From a virus (lineage: Duplodnaviria > Heunggongvirae > Uroviricota > Caudoviricetes), in the IMG/VR virus record IMGVR_UViG_2675903661_000003: 8,213 bases of DNA, one strand, 5' to 3'. Numbering within the stretch: the first letter of the stretch is position 1; every line of letters begins with the position of its first letter. Position numbers and translations under genes: made by a program. Below are positions 1-8,213 of this stretch, piece by piece. Under the pieces are notes generated by a model that made no database searches, was not told where the DNA came from, and saw only the letters and a program-made list of their open reading frames with translations.

Positions 1-75
1 TGATTCTGCTCTGGAGTGTACGAAGCTGAGCCATGTAAAATCCCCGTCATATGGCAATCAGTAAAGGAAATAAAT

Positions 76-276
76 ATGTCATCGAAAAACCGGACCCGCA
101 GAACCACAACCCGCAATATCCGTTTCCCCAATCACATGATTGAACAGATCAACATCGCCCTTGAGCATAAAGGGTCCGGTAACTTTTCAGCGTGGGTTAT
201 TGAAGCCTGCCGGAGAAGGCTGGCAACAGATGCAACGCATCTGCGTCCGGCCAGCATGACAAATAACGAGAAATGA
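76..276 (+). CDS. Small ribbon-helix-helix-like DNA-binding protein (66 aa), putative transcriptional regulator
   Basis: ATG at 76 preceded by AAGGAA about 8 nt upstream; the ORF-track start at 16 is GTG with no obvious RBS. The stretch RNIRFPNHMIEQINIALEHKGSGNFSAWVIEACRRRL fits a beta-strand/helix/turn/helix layout typical of Arc/MetJ/CopG folds. Family assignment is from memory, not a search. Confidence 0.5.
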   Translation: MSSKNRTRRTTTRNIRFPNHMIEQINIALEHKGSGNFSAWVIEACRRRLATDATHLRPASMTNNEK

Positions 277-1079: not shown

Positions 1080-1304
1080 TCAACACACTGGCTGTAATGC
1101 AGCGGATACCATGCGGCATTTAGCGGCATTCATCGTACACTCAACGGTTAGCTCTTCATTCGTGGCATTCACCTGAAAGGTCCGGGAGTGTAATTGCGTA
1201 CATTTACCACTGAACGAACCTTCAACAAGAACACGACCACGCTGCAAAATACGGAACGGAATTGTTCCCTGAAAAGGTTCTACGGTTACCCGTAATTTCT
1301 TCAT
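1080..1304 (-). CDS. Hypothetical 74-aa protein, translationally coupled to Rz
   Basis: Its ATG (1304-1302) overlaps the Rz stop (1303-1301) in an ATGA arrangement, with GGAGG 5 nt upstream. No signal peptide and no recognisable motif. Confidence 0.55.
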   Translation of the reverse strand: MKKLRVTVEPFQGTIPFRILQRGRVLVEGSFSGKCTQLHSRTFQVNATNEELTVECTMNAAKCRMVSAALQPVC

Positions 1305-1804
1305 GTATCCTCCGGATAATAAAAAGCCAGCTTAGTGCACTGAGTGCGTATATATTCCTGCGCCCCTTCCAACTGCTTCTGCATTGTCATCAACCGTTCT
1401 CTGAGGATGAAATAATCCCGTTCAGCGGTGTCTGCCAGTCGGGGGCCGGTTGCATTATCCACGCCGGAGGTGCCGGTGGCTTCACGCACGGTACCGGTGC
1501 AGGTGGCGTTGATCCGCAGGCGCTTACGACCAGCGGCAATATCAGCACGCAGAGTTTCATTTTCAGCTCTCGCATCGGCTAATTCCCTCGAGTATTTTGC
1601 ATCGAGCGCAGCAACATCACGCTGGCGCACCTGCATGTCAGTAATGGTGGCATTCGCCTGTTCCAGCTCTCTGGCTTTTTTATCGCGCTGCGCTTTGTAG
1701 GTGATGGCGTTATCGCGGTAATGATTCAGCCCCAGACTAAGCGCACCACAGACCACCAGCAGAATAACAGTAAACGCGGAAAGAATTCGGTTTATGCTCA
1801 CCAT
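1301..1804 (-). CDS. Rz: Rz-type i-spanin (inner-membrane spanin subunit)
   Basis: N-terminal TM helix followed by LNHYRDNAITYKAQRDK...DVAALDAKY...SGVDNA..PRLADTAERDYF.LRERL.TMQKQLEG, closely resembling lambda Rz as I recall it. ATG at 1804. Confidence 0.9.
   Translation of the reverse strand: MVSINRILSAFTVILLVVCGALSLGLNHYRDNAITYKAQRDKKARELEQANATITDMQVRQRDVAALDAKYSRELADARAENETLRADIAAGRKRLRINATCTGTVREATGTSGVDNATGPRLADTAERDYFILRERLMTMQKQLEGAQEYIRTQCTKLAFYYPEDT
1390..1575 (-). CDS. Rz1: Rz1-type o-spanin lipoprotein, embedded in Rz in the +1 frame
   Basis: Fully nested in Rz. Signal peptide with lipobox (LVVSAC) and a proline-rich mature region CVKPPAPPAWIMQPAPDWQTPLNGIIS nearly identical to the lambda Rz1 motif. 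Alternative start at 1560 (MKLCVL...). Confidence 0.85.
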   Translation of the reverse strand: MRELKMKLCVLILPLVVSACGSTPPAPVPCVKPPAPPAWIMQPAPDWQTPLNGIISSSENG

Positions 1805-1812
1805 GCCCCCTG

Positions 1813-2580
1813 TCAGAAATTGCAGATTATCAGCTCGCTGACACTGCTTGTCTTACCACGTGGTACAGTATAACGATGAGCAACATGATGAATATTCATC
1901 CCCTCAAACAATCGTCTCATTTCCTGCGTATCGTTCAGGGATATAATCATTTTGCCTTTTATTGTGCGGGCAAGTTCTGCCATGCGCTCATAATTGCAGA
2001 ATGAAAAATCAATGCCGTAACCACCATCCAACCAATACGGAGGATCGCAGTAAAACAGCGTTGTCGGGCGGTCATACCGTGCGATACAGACCTCCCAGTC
2101 AAGGTGTTCAATAGTTGCCCGCGCCAGCCGATCACGGGCTTCCTGCAATAACTGCTCTGTATTCCCGGGGATTATCTGCGGTCTGTGAGTTTTAACTCCA
2201 AATGCCCGACTGTATGCTCTTCCGCCATACGCGCACTTCTGGATAAAAAAGAAACGGACAGCCCGCTGGATATCCGTCATGTACTCCGTGTGCTGATTTA
2301 TCACCTCATTCCACATCTCACGACTGGCGAGCATCCACTGAAACTGGCGGGAAAATTCCTCCTGGTGGTACTTCACCACACGGTAGAGATTAACGATATC
2401 ACTGTTTATATCGTTGATGATTTCAGCGCAGCTCGGTTTTTTCATAAAGAACAGTGCCGCACCGCCACAGAACGGTTCCACATACAGAGTGTGCTCAGGA
2501 AATAACGGCAGAATATGTTTTGCCAGACGACGCTTCCCTCCTAACCACGGGAGAAACGGTTTTGCAGAGTTATTATTCAT
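1813..2580 (-). CDS. dam: Dam-family N6-adenine DNA methyltransferase (orphan, phage-encoded)
   Basis: PWLGGKRRL near the N-terminus, EPFCGGAALFF (AdoMet-binding motif I-like) and a DPPY catalytic motif. ATG at 2580 with GGTGGTG upstream. No adjacent restriction endonuclease candidate is visible. Confidence 0.85.
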   Translation of the reverse strand: MNNNSAKPFLPWLGGKRRLAKHILPLFPEHTLYVEPFCGGAALFFMKKPSCAEIINDINSDIVNLYRVVKYHQEEFSRQFQWMLASREMWNEVINQHTEYMTDIQRAVRFFFIQKCAYGGRAYSRAFGVKTHRPQIIPGNTEQLLQEARDRLARATIEHLDWEVCIARYDRPTTLFYCDPPYWLDGGYGIDFSFCNYERMAELARTIKGKMIISLNDTQEMRRLFEGMNIHHVAHRYTVPRGKTSSVSELIICNF

Positions 2581-2849
2581 TTCACCACCAGCGGATTTCC
2601 CGGATTAGAACCGCAATTGCCACAATGCGAATGGCAAATGCCGTTGCCCGAATAAATTCAGTACTCATCTGTTTAAATAAATTGTCGTCATCAGTCACTG
2701 TCACCCCACCAGCCCTGCCGAACTCAACGCCATCCAGGCTATGGAAAGAAAAAGAGCAACCATCATTAGCGAAAATGAAACGCCGACAATCACACAGATG
2801 GTCTTCGCCAGCGTTATGAGTTTGCCTGATATCATTAGACGCCACTCCA

Positions 2850-3416
2850 TCAATCCGTCTTTGTGATTTTTCCTTTGCCTGTATCAGCCAGGACAAAACC
2901 AATCAGCAGATTCGCTTCGTTTATCAACGTGCGAATTTTTGATACATGCGCGGCTTTAACCAGTTTCCATTCGTTTAACCCTGTACCAAACAGACTGGCA
3001 ATATTTTTATCCCGTTTCATGTCAGCGCATGCCTGGTTGAGTTCTTCCATCACGCTCATTTGACGAGGATTAACGACAAAACCCTTCGTCCAGTATTCAT
3101 AGAGAACATCGTCGCACTCTTCCTGATACTGGATAACCTTGTCGCGGATTCCGGGTTTTACTTTGTTGGGATTGATGGTTTGTAACCAGCCTGCAAGTTT
3201 TCGAAGTGGCAGGGACACCATATTGCGTCGTTTCCCGTCCTCAGCAACCATAACGATTTCCGTTATAGTTGACGCAAAACGCTGTCTTAACTTAGCCAAC
3301 TGTGATTGCCAGGCCAGCCCCATCCCCGCAACGACAGGTTTGGGAACGTATGGTTCGCCGTTATGGTTAACCACATAAAGAGAATCGCCGTGAAACGGCA
3401 CGGTTATCATATTCAT
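2850..3416 (-). CDS. Phage antirepressor-like protein (P22 AR N-terminal-domain-like)
   Basis: N-terminus MNMITVPFHGDSLYVVNHNGEPYVPKPVVAGMGLAW resembles the conserved start of P22_AR_N antirepressor-family proteins as I recall them. AAAGGAAA RBS about 7 nt upstream of the ATG at 3416. Family assignment unverified. Confidence 0.55.
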   Translation of the reverse strand: MNMITVPFHGDSLYVVNHNGEPYVPKPVVAGMGLAWQSQLAKLRQRFASTITEIVMVAEDGKRRNMVSLPLRKLAGWLQTINPNKVKPGIRDKVIQYQEECDDVLYEYWTKGFVVNPRQMSVMEELNQACADMKRDKNIASLFGTGLNEWKLVKAAHVSKIRTLINEANLLIGFVLADTGKGKITKTD

Positions 3417-3690
3417 CGGTTATTTCCTTTTAGTGATGAACCCTGCGCACAGGAATAACCAGCCCAAAGAGGGTTAACCAGACCACTGCCGGTTATCCAC
3501 CAGGGCTCATCCTGAAAGGTTCTTTGGTTTATTTACGCTTGTGCGAAGCGCAGAAATGCCAAAGGCACCATTACGGTGCCTCTGCGTGAAACAATGTTCC
3601 TGACTTTATTCACTTCGGTTTTGCCAGTTCGCAGGATTTCGTGTTATCCGTCCGCGTTGGCCAACGTCATTTTTCAGCAAAATATTCTGC

Positions 3691-4224
3691 TTATCTGTCG
3701 ATACCCCAGCACGCCAGCGCGCTCTCCTGGTCACGACGGGATACCTGACCATAACAATTATTTGAGCGGATACGGCAGTCCCTGCCACCGTCCTTAATCC
3801 ACCAGCGAATCGCTTCACACGCTCCCCTGCGATCGCCTGCATTAATTCGTTTATAAAACGTCGACGGGAAACACTTACCGGGGCCAATGTTATACGGGCA
3901 GAATGACGCGATCCCCGCTTTCTGGGGTTCAGTCAGTGGCACCCGGATGTTTTTCTCCACCCATGCCAGCGCCTTATCACGCTCAATGGCGTTAACCTGG
4001 TCGCATTTTTTCTTCGACAACTTCATGCCCGGGACGACAGGTTTGCCATCCACCCTGGTGGCACCACGACAAATGGTCCAGATACCCGCACCATCACGGT
4101 ATGCCGTGGTGTGGTTACCTTCTTTTTCATCCAGAAACTGGTCGAGAATATCAGGCGCAGGCGCCCCTGCGGCAATCAGCGCCAGAACGGCAGCCGACAG
4201 GCCGTATTTGATTTTGGTGTTCAT
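3691..4224 (-). CDS. R: GH24 (T4-lysozyme-like) endolysin with N-terminal SAR or signal sequence
   Basis: Catalytic E-x8-D-x5-T triad within EGNHTTAYRDGAGIWTICRGAT. N-terminal Gly/Ala-rich hydrophobic stretch YGLSAAVLALIAAGAPA is typical of signal-anchor-release endolysins that pair with pinholins. Weak RBS. Confidence 0.88.
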   Translation of the reverse strand: MNTKIKYGLSAAVLALIAAGAPAPDILDQFLDEKEGNHTTAYRDGAGIWTICRGATRVDGKPVVPGMKLSKKKCDQVNAIERDKALAWVEKNIRVPLTEPQKAGIASFCPYNIGPGKCFPSTFYKRINAGDRRGACEAIRWWIKDGGRDCRIRSNNCYGQVSRRDQESALACWGIDR

Positions 4225-4278: not shown

Positions 4279-4293
4279 CCCACCAGTGGTGGG
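4279..4293. promoter_or_regulatory. Palindromic operator-like site CCCACCA-G-TGGTGGG in the divergent intergenic region
   Basis: Perfect 7-bp inverted-repeat arms around a single central nucleotide, lying between the endolysin start (4224, minus) and the plus ORF start (4355). Confidence 0.2.
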
Positions 4294-4354
4294 CACTGGC
4301 GGGTTCTTAATTTCCCCGGATGATCGTGGATTACATTCCACCAGGAGATTACTT

Positions 4355-4987
4355 ATGCTTATCTATCCAGCGGCAGACCTCCGTTTACAGGGACGCAGAG
4401 CACAACCATGGGATAAAACAACCACTCATAAATATCGTCCCGGTCAATATTATGACTTTCGTAAACACCCGGAACTGATCGAGACACACCTTGAGGATTT
4501 TGTTGAATATTCAGACAGACAAGCGATTCAGACCTTTTTTTCTTTTGTTAAGTGGATCAACAGCAATTCATCTGCATTCGAGAGCACGGACTGCATGTTT
4601 TCAGGAACACCAAAGGTTGATGAATACGCCCCGGTATTTGGTTGCACCCATGCGTCATCTGGCCGCTTCGAATTTTTGTTTCGCGATACGAAAATAAACC
4701 AAAATGAGCGAGCTGTCGGATGGGTACTTAACAAACTATCGCTCTACCTTCAGAAAGAACGGCCCGATTTTTGTAAAGGAACCTTTGGCATCGTTCCCCT
4801 CATGACGGAATATACCGACTCCGGCGGTAACGAGTTCACCGGTTATCGTATTTGTGTCTATTTCGATGCTTACGGGAATGGAACAGAGGATACCTGGACT
4901 TCTCTCAACATCATGTTTGATGGCCTCATGAAAGCCACCAAAAGAATGAGCAATGAAACAATCACTGGCGAGATGCGTCCCCTTTAA
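4355..4987 (+). CDS. Hypothetical protein (210 aa), unknown function, opposite strand to the late operon
   Basis: ATG at 4355 with AGGAGA 6 nt upstream; the track ORF begins earlier at 4286 with no convincing start. It is the only long frame across 4355-4735. No TM segment and no motif I can name. A hairpin plus T8 lies about 100 nt downstream. Visibly more AT-rich than flanking phage genes. Confidence 0.5.
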   Translation: MLIYPAADLRLQGRRAQPWDKTTTHKYRPGQYYDFRKHPELIETHLEDFVEYSDRQAIQTFFSFVKWINSNSSAFESTDCMFSGTPKVDEYAPVFGCTHASSGRFEFLFRDTKINQNERAVGWVLNKLSLYLQKERPDFCKGTFGIVPLMTEYTDSGGNEFTGYRICVYFDAYGNGTEDTWTSLNIMFDGLMKATKRMSNETITGEMRPL

Positions 4988-5527
4988 AAAATTATCCAGA
5001 ATCTCACTATTTGCAGAGCGCTCTCTGTTTTTTTGAATACGGAAACACTCTGCGAGATTTCTGCTCATCACTTTCCGGCAATAATCGTAAAACGCCGCGA
5101 ACTGCTCATCACGGCGTTTTTTTTCACCTTCGGAAGGGATCTGCACCGACAGTTTTTTATTCAGTTCAACGACGCTGTTCTCCAGTTTTTCAATGCGTGA
5201 TTCGATATCATCTTTTTCTGACTGTATCGTGTTATATGCATTGTTAATTTGTATGGTATACCGCTCTTCTGAACAGAGGCGCTTTTCCGGCAACGGTTCG
5301 TTCCCTTCACATAACCCGGCAGCAATATCCATGAAAAACTGCTTCGCCTTCTTTTTCGCCTCAGCTTCGTAAAACTCCAGCGGGGCACCTTCAACACGAT
5401 CAAGATCAATCACCACATTTGGCAACAACAGTGACGTATACCCACCAGTTTCCAGCGCCACAGTAACAGTAATCTTATCCGGGTAAATATTTATCCCTTT
5501 AACAACCAGTTCGTATTGTTTATTCAT
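4736..5527 (-). CDS. Hypothetical protein (263 aa) with a central coiled-coil-like segment, immediately downstream of the holin
   Basis: ATG at 5527 lies 3 nt after the holin stop, with GGGAGAG upstream. It is the only long frame across 4988-5527. Contains a heptad-like segment IQSEKDDIESRIEKLENSVVELNKKL. The last 252 nt overlap the plus ORF antiparallel, so the true 3' end is uncertain. Confidence 0.5.
   Translation of the reverse strand: MNKQYELVVKGINIYPDKITVTVALETGGYTSLLLPNVVIDLDRVEGAPLEFYEAEAKKKAKQFFMDIAAGLCEGNEPLPEKRLCSEERYTIQINNAYNTIQSEKDDIESRIEKLENSVVELNKKLSVQIPSEGEKKRRDEQFAAFYDYCRKVMSRNLAECFRIQKNRERSANSEILDNFLKGTHLASDCFIAHSFGGFHEAIKHDVERSPGILCSIPVSIEIDTNTITGELVTAGVGIFRHEGNDAKGSFTKIGPFFLKVER
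5089..5124 (+). terminator. Candidate intrinsic terminator (hairpin plus T8) downstream of the plus ORF, inside the minus ORF
   Basis: AAAACGCCG, a loop of about 14 nt, then CGGCGTTTTTTTT. The A-tract on the other side gives a weaker reverse-orientation terminator. The loop is longer than canonical. Confidence 0.4.
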
Positions 5528-5530
5528 CGT

Positions 5531-5746
5531 CTACTCTCCCCGCGCCGCCTTACGCCGGTCTTCTTTAATTTTGAAATACAGGTTCGTCAGATATGTCAGC
5601 AGCCCAAACAGCAGACTCCCCAGCACGCCTATTGCCGCCCACTGAGACGGGGAAACCCTGTCCAGCAACTGCAGGAACCAGTAGCCCGTTCCCACCGCTG
5701 ACGTGGTGTATGACACACCTGTTGTGATTTTTTCCATCTGGTACAT
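5531..5746 (-). CDS. S: Class II holin / pinholin of the phage 21 S type, with dual-start motif
   Basis: [71 protein letters not shown] matches the S21 pinholin as I recall it. Two Met codons three codons apart (5746 and 5737) give the antiholin/holin dual start. The track start at 5764 is GTG. Confidence 0.85.
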
Positions 5747-5821
5747 ACCCCGTCTCCCGCACACGGAAGCTCACAACATGAAAAAGGCCAGCAGTACTTT
5801 ACTGATGGCCCTGACTCACCC

Positions 5822-6464: not shown

Positions 6465-8213
6465 TCATGCCGCGGCATCCGCGTTGTTCACTTCCACCTT
6501 CACACTGTCAATCAGCAACGTATATGTCGCCGCCTTTGATATGTCTGTCAGTTGCAGTTTGTCCGCCGCCCCTGATGCCGGAGATTTCACCAGTGTGAAC
6601 GGTGTACCCCGTTTCTCATCCAGTACCGGCGTCACCTGAATGCTGTTGTTTCCGGCAAACTCAAAAGCCAGTGTGTGCCATCCGTTATCAAAGACCCCGA
6701 ACGTATCCAGCTTCGCATTCTGCTTCTTGTGGTACATCGCGTTCAGGTTCGTCGCATCCGTCTGCAGGAAGAAGGACATCAGCATGTCGTTGCCTTCCTC
6801 TGACAGCGTCACTCCCTCCGGCAGGGACGACAACTGCCAGTAAATACCCAGGGCAAACTGATTCGGCACCAGTGCGCCCGGCACCTTAAACCGTACGCTC
6901 ACACGTCCGCCTTTCTTCAGCAACTCTGCCCCCTGCCCGGCGGCATCATGCTCCAGAAACCAGATGTGGCTTTCCGGTTTGTTCAGTTGCAGGGCCTTAC
7001 CACCGGTGGCACCCTCATCACTGACCACAGCCTCAGCGATGTTTTTATTAACACTGTCTCCGCTCGCCGGTTTGTGATAATAGCGCCAGCCCTGTGATGC
7101 CAGGTCTTCGCCGGACGCCAGCAGACTCATCAGGGTTCGGTTACTGACCGGGGCTTCCGGCTCTCTCTCCGGGCCTTCACCGGAAGGTCCGGTGGGCTTC
7201 ACCGTATCAGGCTGTTTTCCGGTAATGAATTCAGCGGTTCTCCCGGCATGCACCAGAATCGCCGTTGCCAGACGGTCGGAAATAATCCCACGGCGAGCCC
7301 ATGAACTGAAATGGCTGGCCCTGTCTGCTGATGTCCAGGTCTTCTGGTCATTACGCCACTTTGAACCGTAATAACCGACGGTTTCCAGGTCCGGGTCTTC
7401 TGCCGGGTTATTGGTCTGCACATTCGCACCATTCTCATCCGTCATTAACGGTACAAAGAAAATGTTCTGCGACTCCTTCCCCTTATACCCTCCGTATACT
7501 GATGCATACCCTTCCGCATGACGCTGCTTCCAGAAATACGTTGTGTCCCCGCAAATCCACGGTACCGCTGATGCGCTGCCTCCTGTGCTCTGTGATGCCT
7601 GACCGGCAAGCTCCGTTCTGAACTGATTCACCATCGCACTAAACAGCCCCGGATGCTGCGCATGCGTCCCCACTGCCGCATCACCTTCTCCCTGCATCCA
7701 CACCACCGCAAGCAGACGGTTTTTCGGGTTCTTCGCCAGTGCGGCTTTAGTCCGGCTCACCAAATCCTGATACAGCGGCTTACCCACACCCCAGCGCAGT
7801 GAATTTTCCGATGCACCGGCTGATTCGCTGTATGTGCCGTCTGCACCCGTTGTGAATGCCGAAGCACCACGGCAGCACGGAACCAGCAGAATGCCCGCAT
7901 TCGCCGGTATAAACGGCAGCAGTTTTTTGGCGATATGCAGCCCCTGCCCCACGGTTCCGTACTGCCCCTTTGACAGGTCCGCTTTCGGATGGTTAAGACG
8001 GCTCATGTCCTGCACATCATGCAGACAATGGTCCGCCGGAATAATGTCGTTATACTTACAGGCGGCACCGCCCGGTGTCACCGTACTGCGGCGCGCCAGC
8101 TGCTTAATACGCGGGTCCGGACGGTCATATGTCTCCGGCAGCGGAAGGCCTTCACCATACGACATGCCGTTTGACTGCCCTGCCAGAACCACAACAAAGT
8201 AATACTCCGGGTC
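6465..8213 (-). CDS. nanS: NanS-p-like 9-O-acetyl sialic acid esterase (SGNH/SASA-type hydrolase), 5' end truncated by the window edge
   Basis: VVLAGQSNG is a block-I SGNH-hydrolase motif. The frame stays open upstream of the track's GTG at 8192 to the window end (DPEYYFVVVLAGQSN), so the N-terminus lies outside the window. Size, motif and position just upstream of the holin fit the prophage esterases of Stx-type lambdoid phages as I recall them. Confidence 0.75.
   Translation of the reverse strand, partial: DPEYYFVVVLAGQSNGMSYGEGLPLPETYDRPDPRIKQLARRSTVTPGGAACKYNDIIPADHCLHDVQDMSRLNHPKADLSKGQYGTVGQGLHIAKKLLPFIPANAGILLVPCCRGASAFTTGADGTYSESAGASENSLRWGVGKPLYQDLVSRTKAALAKNPKNRLLAVVWMQGEGDAAVGTHAQHPGLFSAMVNQFRTELAGQASQSTGGSASAVPWICGDTTYFWKQRHAEGYASVYGGYKGKESQNIFFVPLMTDENGANVQTNNPAEDPDLETVGYYGSKWRNDQKTWTSADRASHFSSWARRGIISDRLATAILVHAGRTAEFITGKQPDTVKPTGPSGEGPEREPEAPVSNRTLMSLLASGEDLASQGWRYYHKPASGDSVNKNIAEAVVSDEGATGGKALQLNKPESHIWFLEHDAAGQGAELLKKGGRVSVRFKVPGALVPNQFALGIYWQLSSLPEGVTLSEEGNDMLMSFFLQTDATNLNAMYHKKQNAKLDTFGVFDNGWHTLAFEFAGNNSIQVTPVLDEKRGTPFTLVKSPASGAADKLQLTDISKAATYTLLIDSVKVEVNNADAAA

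Follow-up and report, generated by a model that had tools for sequence, protein, structure and literature searches.

A structured RNA leader and a proposed nested accessory-gene stack between the endolysin and spanin genes of a lambdoid Escherichia coli prophage

The stretch of DNA analysed here, which we refer to as the window, comprises 8,213 nucleotides (nt) of a virus of the Caudoviricetes (IMG/VR record IMGVR_UViG_2675903661_000003). It is part of a mosaic lambdoid E. coli prophage; by megablast its nearest relatives are Stx1a and Stx2a (Shiga toxin) phages at 88-93% identity, with any one phage record covering at most about half of the window. Between the endolysin gene R and the spanin genes Rz/Rz1 we find an inserted block, which holds a terminator-like hairpin and a structured RNA leader and continues with an Ant-like gene (ant), two small open reading frames (orf49 and orf40) and a Dam-family DNA methyltransferase gene (dam). 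The leader is the principal finding. It is a widespread structured RNA and apparently undescribed, as it was located neither in Rfam nor in the literature searched. For the block as a whole we consider it probable, although far from settled, that it represents a nested stack of accessory genes with late expression, in which the leader gates translation and the methyltransferase acts late on progeny DNA. An earlier, sequence-only reading had placed the methyltransferase and an antirepressor-like gene between R and Rz/Rz1, a placement on which the coordinates and the profile matches to R and Rz agree. All of the relevant long open reading frames (ORFs) lie on the minus strand, in the order R, Ant-like gene, orf49, orf40, methyltransferase, Rz/Rz1. 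The block and its two boundaries are made up as follows:

3691-4224, minus strand: R, endolysin with a signal-anchor-like (SAR) hydrophobic N-terminal segment (PF00959, Phage_lysozyme, E 7e-25); upstream boundary of the block
3563-3581, minus strand: terminator-like hairpin, AGGCACC-GTAAT-GGTGCCT followed by TTGGCATTTCT
3414-3554, minus strand: structured RNA leader of about 140 nt (covariance-model match, 92.5 bits, E 2e-23)
2850-3416, minus strand: Ant-like gene, 188 aa (P22_AR_N and ORF11CD3)
2701-2850, minus strand: orf49 (phrog_4906, E 6e-26)
2582-2704, minus strand: orf40 (called by reading the sequence)
1813-2580, minus strand: Dam-family methyltransferase, 255 aa (PF02086, TIGR00571, phrog_56)
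1301-1804, minus strand: Rz, i-spanin (PF03245, E 1.5e-49); downstream boundary of the block
1390-1575, minus strand: Rz1, embedded in Rz

The interval between R and ant (3417-3690) had been taken for a plain non-coding gap. We found no conserved ORF in it, but the description falls short, as the interval holds both the terminator-like hairpin and the leader. Read from 5' to 3', the architecture consists of the terminator-like hairpin, a hairpin termed P0, a seven-nucleotide tail ('a'), the 5' arm of a long stem, two small inner hairpins, one of which carries a segment termed 'a-prime' in its loop, and the 3' arm of the long stem. The positions of these elements in the window are:

about 3536-3551, minus strand: P0 hairpin
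3521-3527, minus strand: tail 'a', CCAAAGA
3501-3519, minus strand: 5' arm of the long stem
3464-3470, minus strand: loop 'a-prime', TCTTTGG, in the inner three-way region
3426-3445, minus strand: 3' arm, with the Shine-Dalgarno sequence AAAGGA
3414-3416, minus strand: ATG start codon of ant

Two pairings define the predicted fold, and covariation supports both. The long, interrupted stem would pair the Shine-Dalgarno sequence of ant with the upstream arm, and the 5' tail 'a' would form seven base pairs with the loop 'a-prime'. Because the second pairing crosses the long stem, the two together imply either a pseudoknot or an alternative fold. For the interior we considered a three-way junction and a longer c/e helix, of which only the three-way junction was counted. 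P0 takes the form GCGC-N7-GCGC, with compensated variants that include GCGU/ACGC and GCAC/GUGC among others. In all the copies compared, the Shine-Dalgarno sequence falls within the 3' arm, 6-9 nt before the start codon. Most other copies also have a GC-rich stem followed by a T-run (canonically T6) 15-30 nt upstream of the element, as seen in an alignment of 64 unique copies; a simple terminator scan does not call the hairpin in the window.

Searches for a known family gave nothing that matched. Against Rfam 15 the whole window returned no hit at E <= 1, and the best score for a 226-nt region was 21.9 bits, where the gathering score is 90; none of its matches was to a family of relevance, whether c4, isrK, riboswitches or ribozymes. 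No published description of the leader was found, and six strings taken from its sequence were absent from the full-text literature searched. A hammerhead ribozyme, a candidate prompted by CAGGAUGA, was rejected, since the core consensus is absent and Rfam gave no match. Inspection for CsrA or IHF sites revealed no consistent motif in the leader, and the GGA of the Shine-Dalgarno sequence is GGU in most copies.

The spacer between R and ant folds better than its shuffled counterparts (minimum free energy z = -3.97) and is conserved in more than 260 phage records. In a plain MAFFT alignment of 24 sequences, 96.3% of the cells are paired, compared with 33-49% when the partners are slid against each other, and the covariation score lies above all of 500 shuffles. 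A covariance model built from this alignment identified 60 copies on the gene strand in 53 sources, together with a single weak antisense match (25.5 bits) that overlaps a true copy. The model-based alignment of 56 distinct sequences gave a similar picture, with 96.1% of cells paired against 24-48% for slid partners. Here changes on both sides of a pair were seen in 20 of 40 pairs (shuffle mean 7.4; none of 500 shuffles reached 20) and the covariation score was 0.163, against a shuffle mean of 0.066. The a/a-prime pairing had been left out of the covariance model. One of its column pairs nevertheless reads AU in 24 sequences, UA in 15, CG in 14 and GC in two, and is unpaired in none; at least 10 matched variants of a/a-prime occur. 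RNAalifold independently recovers P0, the long stem and one of the inner hairpins.

Could the conserved sequence between R and ant instead be a feature of the DNA, such as a recombination linker or a protein-binding inverted repeat? Its conservation across genera is very high (82% mean column identity) and it sits at module junctions with varied flanking genes, as would be expected of a recombination hot spot. However, compensatory changes keep four separate helices paired, and in divergent second copies both arms of the long stem have been rewritten with their complementarity kept. Column pair 78/107 is G-U in 53 of the 56 sequences and would be A-C on the opposite strand; this conserved pair, together with the bias of the model matches towards the gene strand, argues for an RNA rather than a DNA feature. 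The constant position of the 3' arm over the Shine-Dalgarno sequence points the same way, and we regard the DNA-level explanation as the least credible of those considered here. The leader has the general properties of a structured cis-regulatory RNA, namely compensated helices, strand specificity and a fixed distance to the start codon.

The leader is not tied to ant. Its ant-proximal part of about 115 nt also stands before unrelated genes in Salmonella phage ST104, a Klebsiella phage and a Lambdavirus, and there it is more conserved than the surrounding coding sequence. A pattern scan of viral contigs yielded at least 120 loci, giving at least 89 true copies, and a second, independent pattern revealed further variants. 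In a scan of one genome per species the leader was present in 22 genomes, nearly all of them Enterobacterales; among the genera are Salmonella, Citrobacter, Enterobacter, Raoultella, Serratia, Yersinia, Edwardsiella, Pantoea, Erwinia, Tatumella and Arsenophonus. One of the hits, a 392-bp contig of Xanthomonas pisi DSM 18956 (L213), closely resembles the spacer of E. coli and the first part of ant, which most likely reflects contamination of the assembly and not a Xanthomonas prophage.

The cargo that follows the leader is interchangeable. Besides the P22_AR_N and ORF11CD3 combination of the window, it includes KilA-N, KilA-N with P63C, Rha with ORF11CD3, Rha alone, ANT/KilAC and two kinds of HNH_3 protein. 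The gene before the leader, among the matches listed, is the endolysin R in 29 of 89 copies, Rz in 18 and DUF6246 in 12, with tail proteins also represented; all of these are late-operon positions. Cargo genes of the KilA-N and Rha types, otherwise unrelated, open alike with M-[KNQT]-Y-P-T-[VI] (ATGAAnTAyCCAAC), for example in loci L014, L037, L039 and L204, so that conservation at the nucleotide level may reach past the start codon into the first few codons. This opening is absent from the Ant-like cargo of the window. In Edwardsiella-type prophages (L027, L033, L203 and L205) two leaders stand in tandem about 300 nt apart, the first followed by an 11-codon ORF alone and the second by a KilA-N-like or other gene. 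The 11-codon ORF is apparently a truncated cargo gene; a related type has a gene of 260-271 aa.

Some prophages carry two leaders. That of E. coli JNEC-KY176 (L013) has the leader-ant-orf49-dam arrangement, with dam in an 87% identical variant, and a second, divergent leader (2522-2659 of that locus, 62.5 bits) before a Rha-family gene just downstream of Rz. The second leader is of a different a/a-prime type, CCCCGAG / CTCGGGG. All seven tabulated two-copy loci carry two different a/a-prime types, as does an eighth, L085, in the alignment of copies, and across copies the types are shuffled relative to the cargo. We also noted a recombinant leader (L089, 2517-2654), in which the tail of the window type, CCAAAGA, is joined to the loop of another type, TTCTGTG, which leaves a/a-prime only partly paired; the Ant-like ORF that follows has been cut short, to 132 aa.

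These observations suggest a broader reading, which we put forward tentatively and hold with somewhat less than even confidence. The spacer may encode an undescribed family of pseudoknotted leaders of about 130-140 nt, a portable control cassette that temperate Enterobacterales phages place before interchangeable, potentially toxic DNA-binding cargo of the late operon, with a/a-prime serving as a type-specific 'address'. Its components would be a terminator, P0, the tail 'a' and a multi-helix core in which the Shine-Dalgarno sequence is sequestered. The address would prevent cross-talk among copies in one phage or in co-resident prophages, or else leaders released by processing would act in trans on copies of their own type, as in the heteroimmunity of c4. 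A rival explanation is that the leader is cut from the late transcript and acts as an antisense RNA, 'a-prime' recognising the 'a' of matching leaders like the types of P1 and P7 c4. The a/a-prime segments are the most variable positions of a highly conserved element and always change together, the two-copy loci carry different types, and antisense RNAs upstream of antirepressor genes are established in P1 (c4), P22 (sar), N15 (CA) and Gifsy-1 (IsrK) (background in PMC12197685). Pairing within a single molecule, however, explains the covariation equally well, and the second copies are divergent throughout, so that differing types would be expected anyway. Given also that Rfam offers no match to c4, isrK or another family, we find an antisense role in trans improbable.

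P1/P7 c4, P22 sar, N15 CA and the Gifsy-1 IsrK leader resemble the leader of the window in that a gene of the antirepressor type is directly preceded by a structured RNA, with complementary segments that covary as matched pairs. Control in the known systems is exerted at the ribosome-binding site (background in PMC12197685), and the pairing pattern suggests the same for the leader of the window. In contrast to them, this leader matches no Rfam family, c4 and isrK included, its covarying partner 'a' lies upstream of the stem and not over the ribosome-binding site, and its cargo is not limited to antirepressors. A second group of relatives in kind are leaders that sequester the Shine-Dalgarno sequence until processing or remodelling activates them, such as the lambda N leader with RNase III and the RNA thermometers, which share the long interrupted stem between the Shine-Dalgarno sequence and an upstream arm. 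Unlike these, the leader of the window has an interior with a conserved multi-helix fold and a tail-loop pairing. In this it is closer to the aptamer of a riboswitch, or to a platform for protein binding, than to a simple hairpin. The likeness to riboswitches is suggestive and concerns architecture only, that is, the multi-helix core, the tail-loop pairing and the predicted Shine-Dalgarno sequestration.

The gene directly behind the leader had been described as having an N-terminus like that of the P22 antirepressor. A profile search of the 188-aa protein supports this part of the description, with a match to P22_AR_N (PF10547, E 1e-41) over residues 5-112, near the full length of the domain, while the rest of P22 Ant is absent. 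The C-terminus belongs instead to ORF11CD3 (PF10549, E 5e-7, residues 121-161), which is also found on Rha-type proteins, and no P22_AR_C was detected at E <= 0.01. The protein also matches phrog_524, 'anti-repressor Ant', at E 1.5e-104. The P22 gene sits in the immI region with mnt, arc and sar, whereas the gene of the window is located in a late lysis operon. Phages BP-4795 and Min27 and many Stx phages have an ant gene annotated in the corresponding place, between R and Rz. Ant together with a small ORF there is normal for O157, O55 and O111 and for many Stx phages; Ant was counted in 126 of 279 Stx phages (PMC8136144). With BP-4795, Min27, Shigella phage 7888 and O157 prophages the window shares the gene, its position, the upstream spacer and the next small ORF, at 82-96% DNA identity. 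It differs from the arrangement of these Stx and lambdoid phages by the methyltransferase segment added downstream, and otherwise there is nothing special about it.

Is the Ant-like protein a working antirepressor, which from the late operon would cross-induce co-resident lambdoid prophages or lock in the phage's own lytic commitment? Trans-acting antirepressors are known to couple prophages in the Salmonella Gifsy phages, the P22_AR_N and phrog_524 matches are strong, and hundreds of Stx and lambdoid phages have kept the gene in this place. Against this, the protein corresponds just to the N-terminal domain of P22 Ant. The same leader, moreover, precedes KilA-N, Rha, ANT and HNH cargo, so that the position selects a class of DNA-binding proteins and not antirepressors specifically. 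No functional study of a lysis-cassette ant was found in the literature searched. On balance we judge a working antirepressor unlikely, while taking the idea seriously.

The second supposed non-coding gap, 2581-2849, turned out to be coding, with orf49 (49 aa) and orf40 (40 aa). The ATG of orf49 overlaps the stop codon of ant (ATGA), and the GTG of orf40 overlaps the stop codon of orf49 (GTGA), with an alternative ATG giving 28 aa. The stop codon of orf40 lies 1 nt before the dam start codon (TGA-A-ATG), and an 8-nt spacer separates the stop of dam from the start of Rz. The block is thus packed like an operon, and from these overlaps orf49 and orf40 would be translationally coupled. The product of orf49 is hydrophobic, probably a membrane protein, and is annotated by PGAP as WP_032151794.1 in relatives; it also follows ant in the arrangement without dam of O55:H7 CB9615. 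As a gene, orf40 is doubtful. It has no family match, and a tblastn search of phages gave no match with the limit relaxed to E = 10; in relatives PGAP annotates a partial hypothetical protein here, and its 114-nt segment is absent from the 86-87% dam variant and is found beside Rz in a few other E. coli prophages.

Comparison with other prophages suggests how the block was built. The common state in E. coli is R-leader-ant-orf48-Rz (Ant-only), and relative to it positions 1768-2687 of the window stand in place of 21 nt. As homology to the Ant-only arrangement resumes at 1767, the first 12 or so codons of Rz came in with the dam segment. We propose that recombination placed 1813-3690 (minus strand) between R and Rz/Rz1 as accessory genes ('morons') stacked in nested layers. 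An older and common layer would be a portable module of terminator-like hairpin, leader, ant-like gene and orf49, and a younger, rarer layer would consist of orf40 and the solitary methyltransferase directly before Rz. A prophage that has dam without ant also lacks the leader, which identifies the methyltransferase as a later passenger, outside the leader module. The stack does not qualify as morons in the strict sense of genes with their own promoter and terminator; a simple sigma-70 consensus scan shows no promoter-like site in the gaps, there is nothing between dam and Rz, and the terminator-like hairpin is upstream, not downstream, of the inserted genes. At the level of genes the finding is an ordinary one, a rare addition to the large clade of solitary phage methyltransferases, next to an Ant-like gene that is well known.

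A scan with a simple sigma-70 consensus found no promoter-like site in either gap. The sole match between 1200 and 4400 (one, against a shuffled mean of 3.6) is AAGACA-17-GATAAT at 1826-1854 (minus strand), with 9 of 12 positions, in the 3' end of the methyltransferase gene and upstream of Rz. The tight packing, the overlaps of start with stop codons and the lack of promoter-like sites argue for late-operon rather than lysogen expression. With a terminator upstream and no promoter found, the block would be read only in the Q-antiterminated late transcript. In the working that we propose, the block lacks its own promoter and is carried on that transcript, and the leader would restrain the translation of potentially toxic DNA-binding cargo or make it conditional. 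For orf49, and perhaps for genes beyond it, translation would be coupled to that of ant. The leader might be opened by RNase III cutting the long stem, by a protein or ligand, by temperature or by an RNA of matching type acting in trans. The methyltransferase would be made late in lytic growth and would methylate progeny DNA, at a site that need not be GATC, before packaging, which would give protection against restriction in the next host.

An alternative has the methyltransferase made in the lysogen, where it would regulate host genes epigenetically. Such effects can be large, as M.EcoGIII, which is phage-borne and belongs to a restriction-modification system and is not solitary, affects about 1,900 E. 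coli genes according to the work cited in PMC6602927. For the gene of the window, however, there is no promoter-like site upstream, and it begins 1 nt after the preceding ORF inside a late lysis operon. The D12/Dam-like methyltransferases of EC958 and O111 prophages are silent or undetectable in lysogens (PMC4659465, PMC6602927), and dam is frameshifted in one close relative. A regulatory role in the lysogen therefore strikes us as very improbable, and the methyltransferase is most likely a late gene.

The assignment of the 255-aa protein to the Dam family, made earlier from its motifs, holds up well. PWLGGK (aa 11-16), EPFCGGAALFF (aa 35-45) and DPPY (aa 179-182) are all present, and the FxGxG (EPFCGG, aa 35-40) and DPPY motifs stand in alpha-group order and are invariant in 22 relatives. 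With cofactor and catalytic motifs intact, the protein does not have the look of an inactive enzyme. It matches PF02086 at E 4e-27 (95.9 bits, cut-off 22) and phrog_56 at E 3e-90. The score for TIGR00571, 115.2 bits, is barely over the cut-off of 114.85, and that for the E. coli Dam equivalog NF008152 is 72 bits against a cut-off of 441. The closest solved relatives are E. coli Dam and DpnM (E 1e-15 to 1e-17) with 26-27% identity. An AlphaFold2 model (pLDDT 80, pTM 0.81) gave E. coli Dam as the top Foldseek match (E 3e-18, TM 0.74-0.79), followed by DpnM, Mcbe1 and T4 Dam; the low-confidence part of the model is the recognition hairpin, residues 118-134. At the level of family and predicted fold the protein is probably a D12-class, alpha-group member of the Dam family, of the DPPY type and acting on N6 of adenine.

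The target site is a separate matter. The residues with which E. coli Dam reads GATC, which we take from the Dam-DNA structure to be K9, N120, L122, R124 and P134, have no conserved equivalents in an alignment with Dam and DpnM, in which the loop is uncertainly aligned. The Lys9 position is a proline that is invariant across the clade. The recognition hairpin of Dam and DpnM, N-G-L-x-R...F-N-V-P-F/Y-G-R-Y, is replaced by a sequence about 3 residues shorter, YNGLCRYNLRGEFNVPFGRY giving way to YGGRAYSRAFGVKTHR with the same uncertainty of alignment in this loop, and the segment after DPPY is about 7 residues shorter. With E. coli Dam, DpnM and T4 Dam the protein has in common the fold, the motif order (xWxGGK, FxGxG, DPPY) and a similar length, and with Dam and T4 Dam its solitary status; from Dam and DpnM it is set apart by low identity, by the unconserved GATC contacts and by the two shorter segments. 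GATC specificity should therefore not be assumed.

T4 Dam and P1 Dmt top up GATC methylation on phage DNA, and the protein of the window might be a true GATC Dam that does the same on fast-replicating phage DNA. The best sequence and fold matches among solved structures are indeed the GATC enzymes DpnM, E. coli Dam and T4 Dam, and the score is just over the 'dam' cut-off of TIGR00571. The weak identity, the proline in place of Lys9 and the shorter, different hairpin with its missing post-DPPY residues all speak against it, and that hairpin is the least confident part of the model. The D12 fold matches chain 7m6b (Mcbe1) as well, which is presumably a non-GATC enzyme. A D12-class methyltransferase of an EC958 prophage, M.EcoMIV, is silent in the lysogen and has no characterised homologue above 65% identity (PMC4659465). 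In our estimation a GATC Dam is an unlikely identity for the enzyme, though one with real points in its favour.

NCBI already lists the identical protein, under the name 'DNA adenine methylase [Escherichia coli]'. Beyond the 87% variant, its nearest relatives are proteins of 250-266 aa (most 254-256) with 52-61% identity, from Enterobacterales prophages, Klebsiella phage KP12, Vibrio phage VP882, Halomonas phage phiHAP-1 and Burkholderia phiE125-like phages (phiE125 gp27). This clade of temperate-phage 'DNA adenine methylases' resembles the window protein over its full length, with the same invariant positions, including the proline at Dam-Lys9, and the same solitary status, but together with the 87% variant the window protein stands apart as a minor E. 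coli branch, seen only in lambdoid prophages, immediately upstream of Rz. phiE125 gp27 has reportedly been shown to be an adenine methylase. On its target site, PMC3091744 mentions gp27 only as the label of another protein, and the Salmonella and E. coli methylome papers examined leave this clade uncovered.

The methyltransferase had been described as an orphan, and it is solitary. There is no cognate nuclease in the window, where its neighbours are orf40 and Rz, none was found as a restriction partner on eight other contigs that encode the identical protein, and no restriction enzyme is annotated in the complete 43-kb related prophage of strain FHI_NMBU_10. PADLOC gave a generic type II methyltransferase model as its top match, without a system partner. 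All eight of those contigs have the gene order R-ant-orf49-dam-Rz. The gene is rare, being present in 5 of 5,426 complete E. coli genomes, three with at least 99.8% identity and two with about 86%, one of the latter having dam without ant. One of the three near-identical copies, in E. coli IBS28 (L001 6614-7382, NZ_CP049979.1; 99.8% identical), is annotated as frameshifted and is thus a pseudogene. We found no DNA-level match that could be the donor of the dam segment in 50,697 phage records, and the closest phage proteins are just 52-58% identical.

Several points weigh against our preferred reading of a late, leader-gated accessory stack and have to be set beside the evidence for it. The U-tract of the terminator-like hairpin is degenerate and weak in the window. 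The simple promoter scan could miss a real promoter, and with it some expression in the lysogen, and the frameshift in IBS28 suggests that dam is dispensable. On the side of the RNA, part of the long stem was fixed by the first collection pattern, so that the variation seen there is confined to copies collected with the second pattern and to divergent ones identified by the model; the model-based alignment (A5) was fitted to the nested structure; and most copies are closely related (effective sequence number 1.31), so that the counts reflect few independent events.

The genes alone matter little, as solitary phage methyltransferases and the Ant-like genes of Stx-phage lysis cassettes are both well known; at this level the analysis mainly corrects the assumption of a GATC target and the idea of a lysogen-expressed regulator. 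The leader could be of wider consequence. It is common to hundreds of prophages in E. coli, Salmonella, Klebsiella, Yersinia, Edwardsiella and other genera, and it precedes a class of phage regulatory genes with poorly understood control and function, including the ant gene of many Shiga-toxin phages. If it gates translation, it would offer a handle on how accessory genes of the late operon stay harmless, and it may bear on prophage cross-talk in strains with many prophages such as enterohaemorrhagic E. coli.

The remaining features of the window lie on either side of the block, and a tRNA scan of the window found none:

6465-8192, minus strand: SASA/DUF6645 esterase (nanS-p-like)
5531-5764, minus strand: P21-type holin
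4736-5527, minus strand: DUF1327 fusion protein, 263 aa
408-749, minus strand: TonB_C lipoprotein

The 263-aa protein, in the interval between holin and endolysin, combines an N-terminal DUF1327 with a long extension that lies outside known families. In relatives the slot holds shorter or truncated versions together with about 1 kb of unannotated DNA, and it is another accessory-gene position within the lysis cassette. Between R and the DUF1327 gene, an ORF of 233 aa on the plus strand (4286-4987) overlaps the 3' end of the 263-aa ORF. It is of balanced composition and has no match in Pfam, NCBIfam, PHROGs or PADLOC, and in the 12 identical E. coli genomes listed, among 113 genomes with at least 99% identity, PGAP calls the DUF1327 gene alone over this stretch; the ORF may be a gene missed by annotation or one that arose by chance. 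Beyond the lysis genes, the TonB_C-domain lipoprotein stands at the position of lambda bor and a YlcI/YnfO (DUF3950) gene lies on the opposite strand (16-276, plus strand), and relatives are annotated with the same pair.

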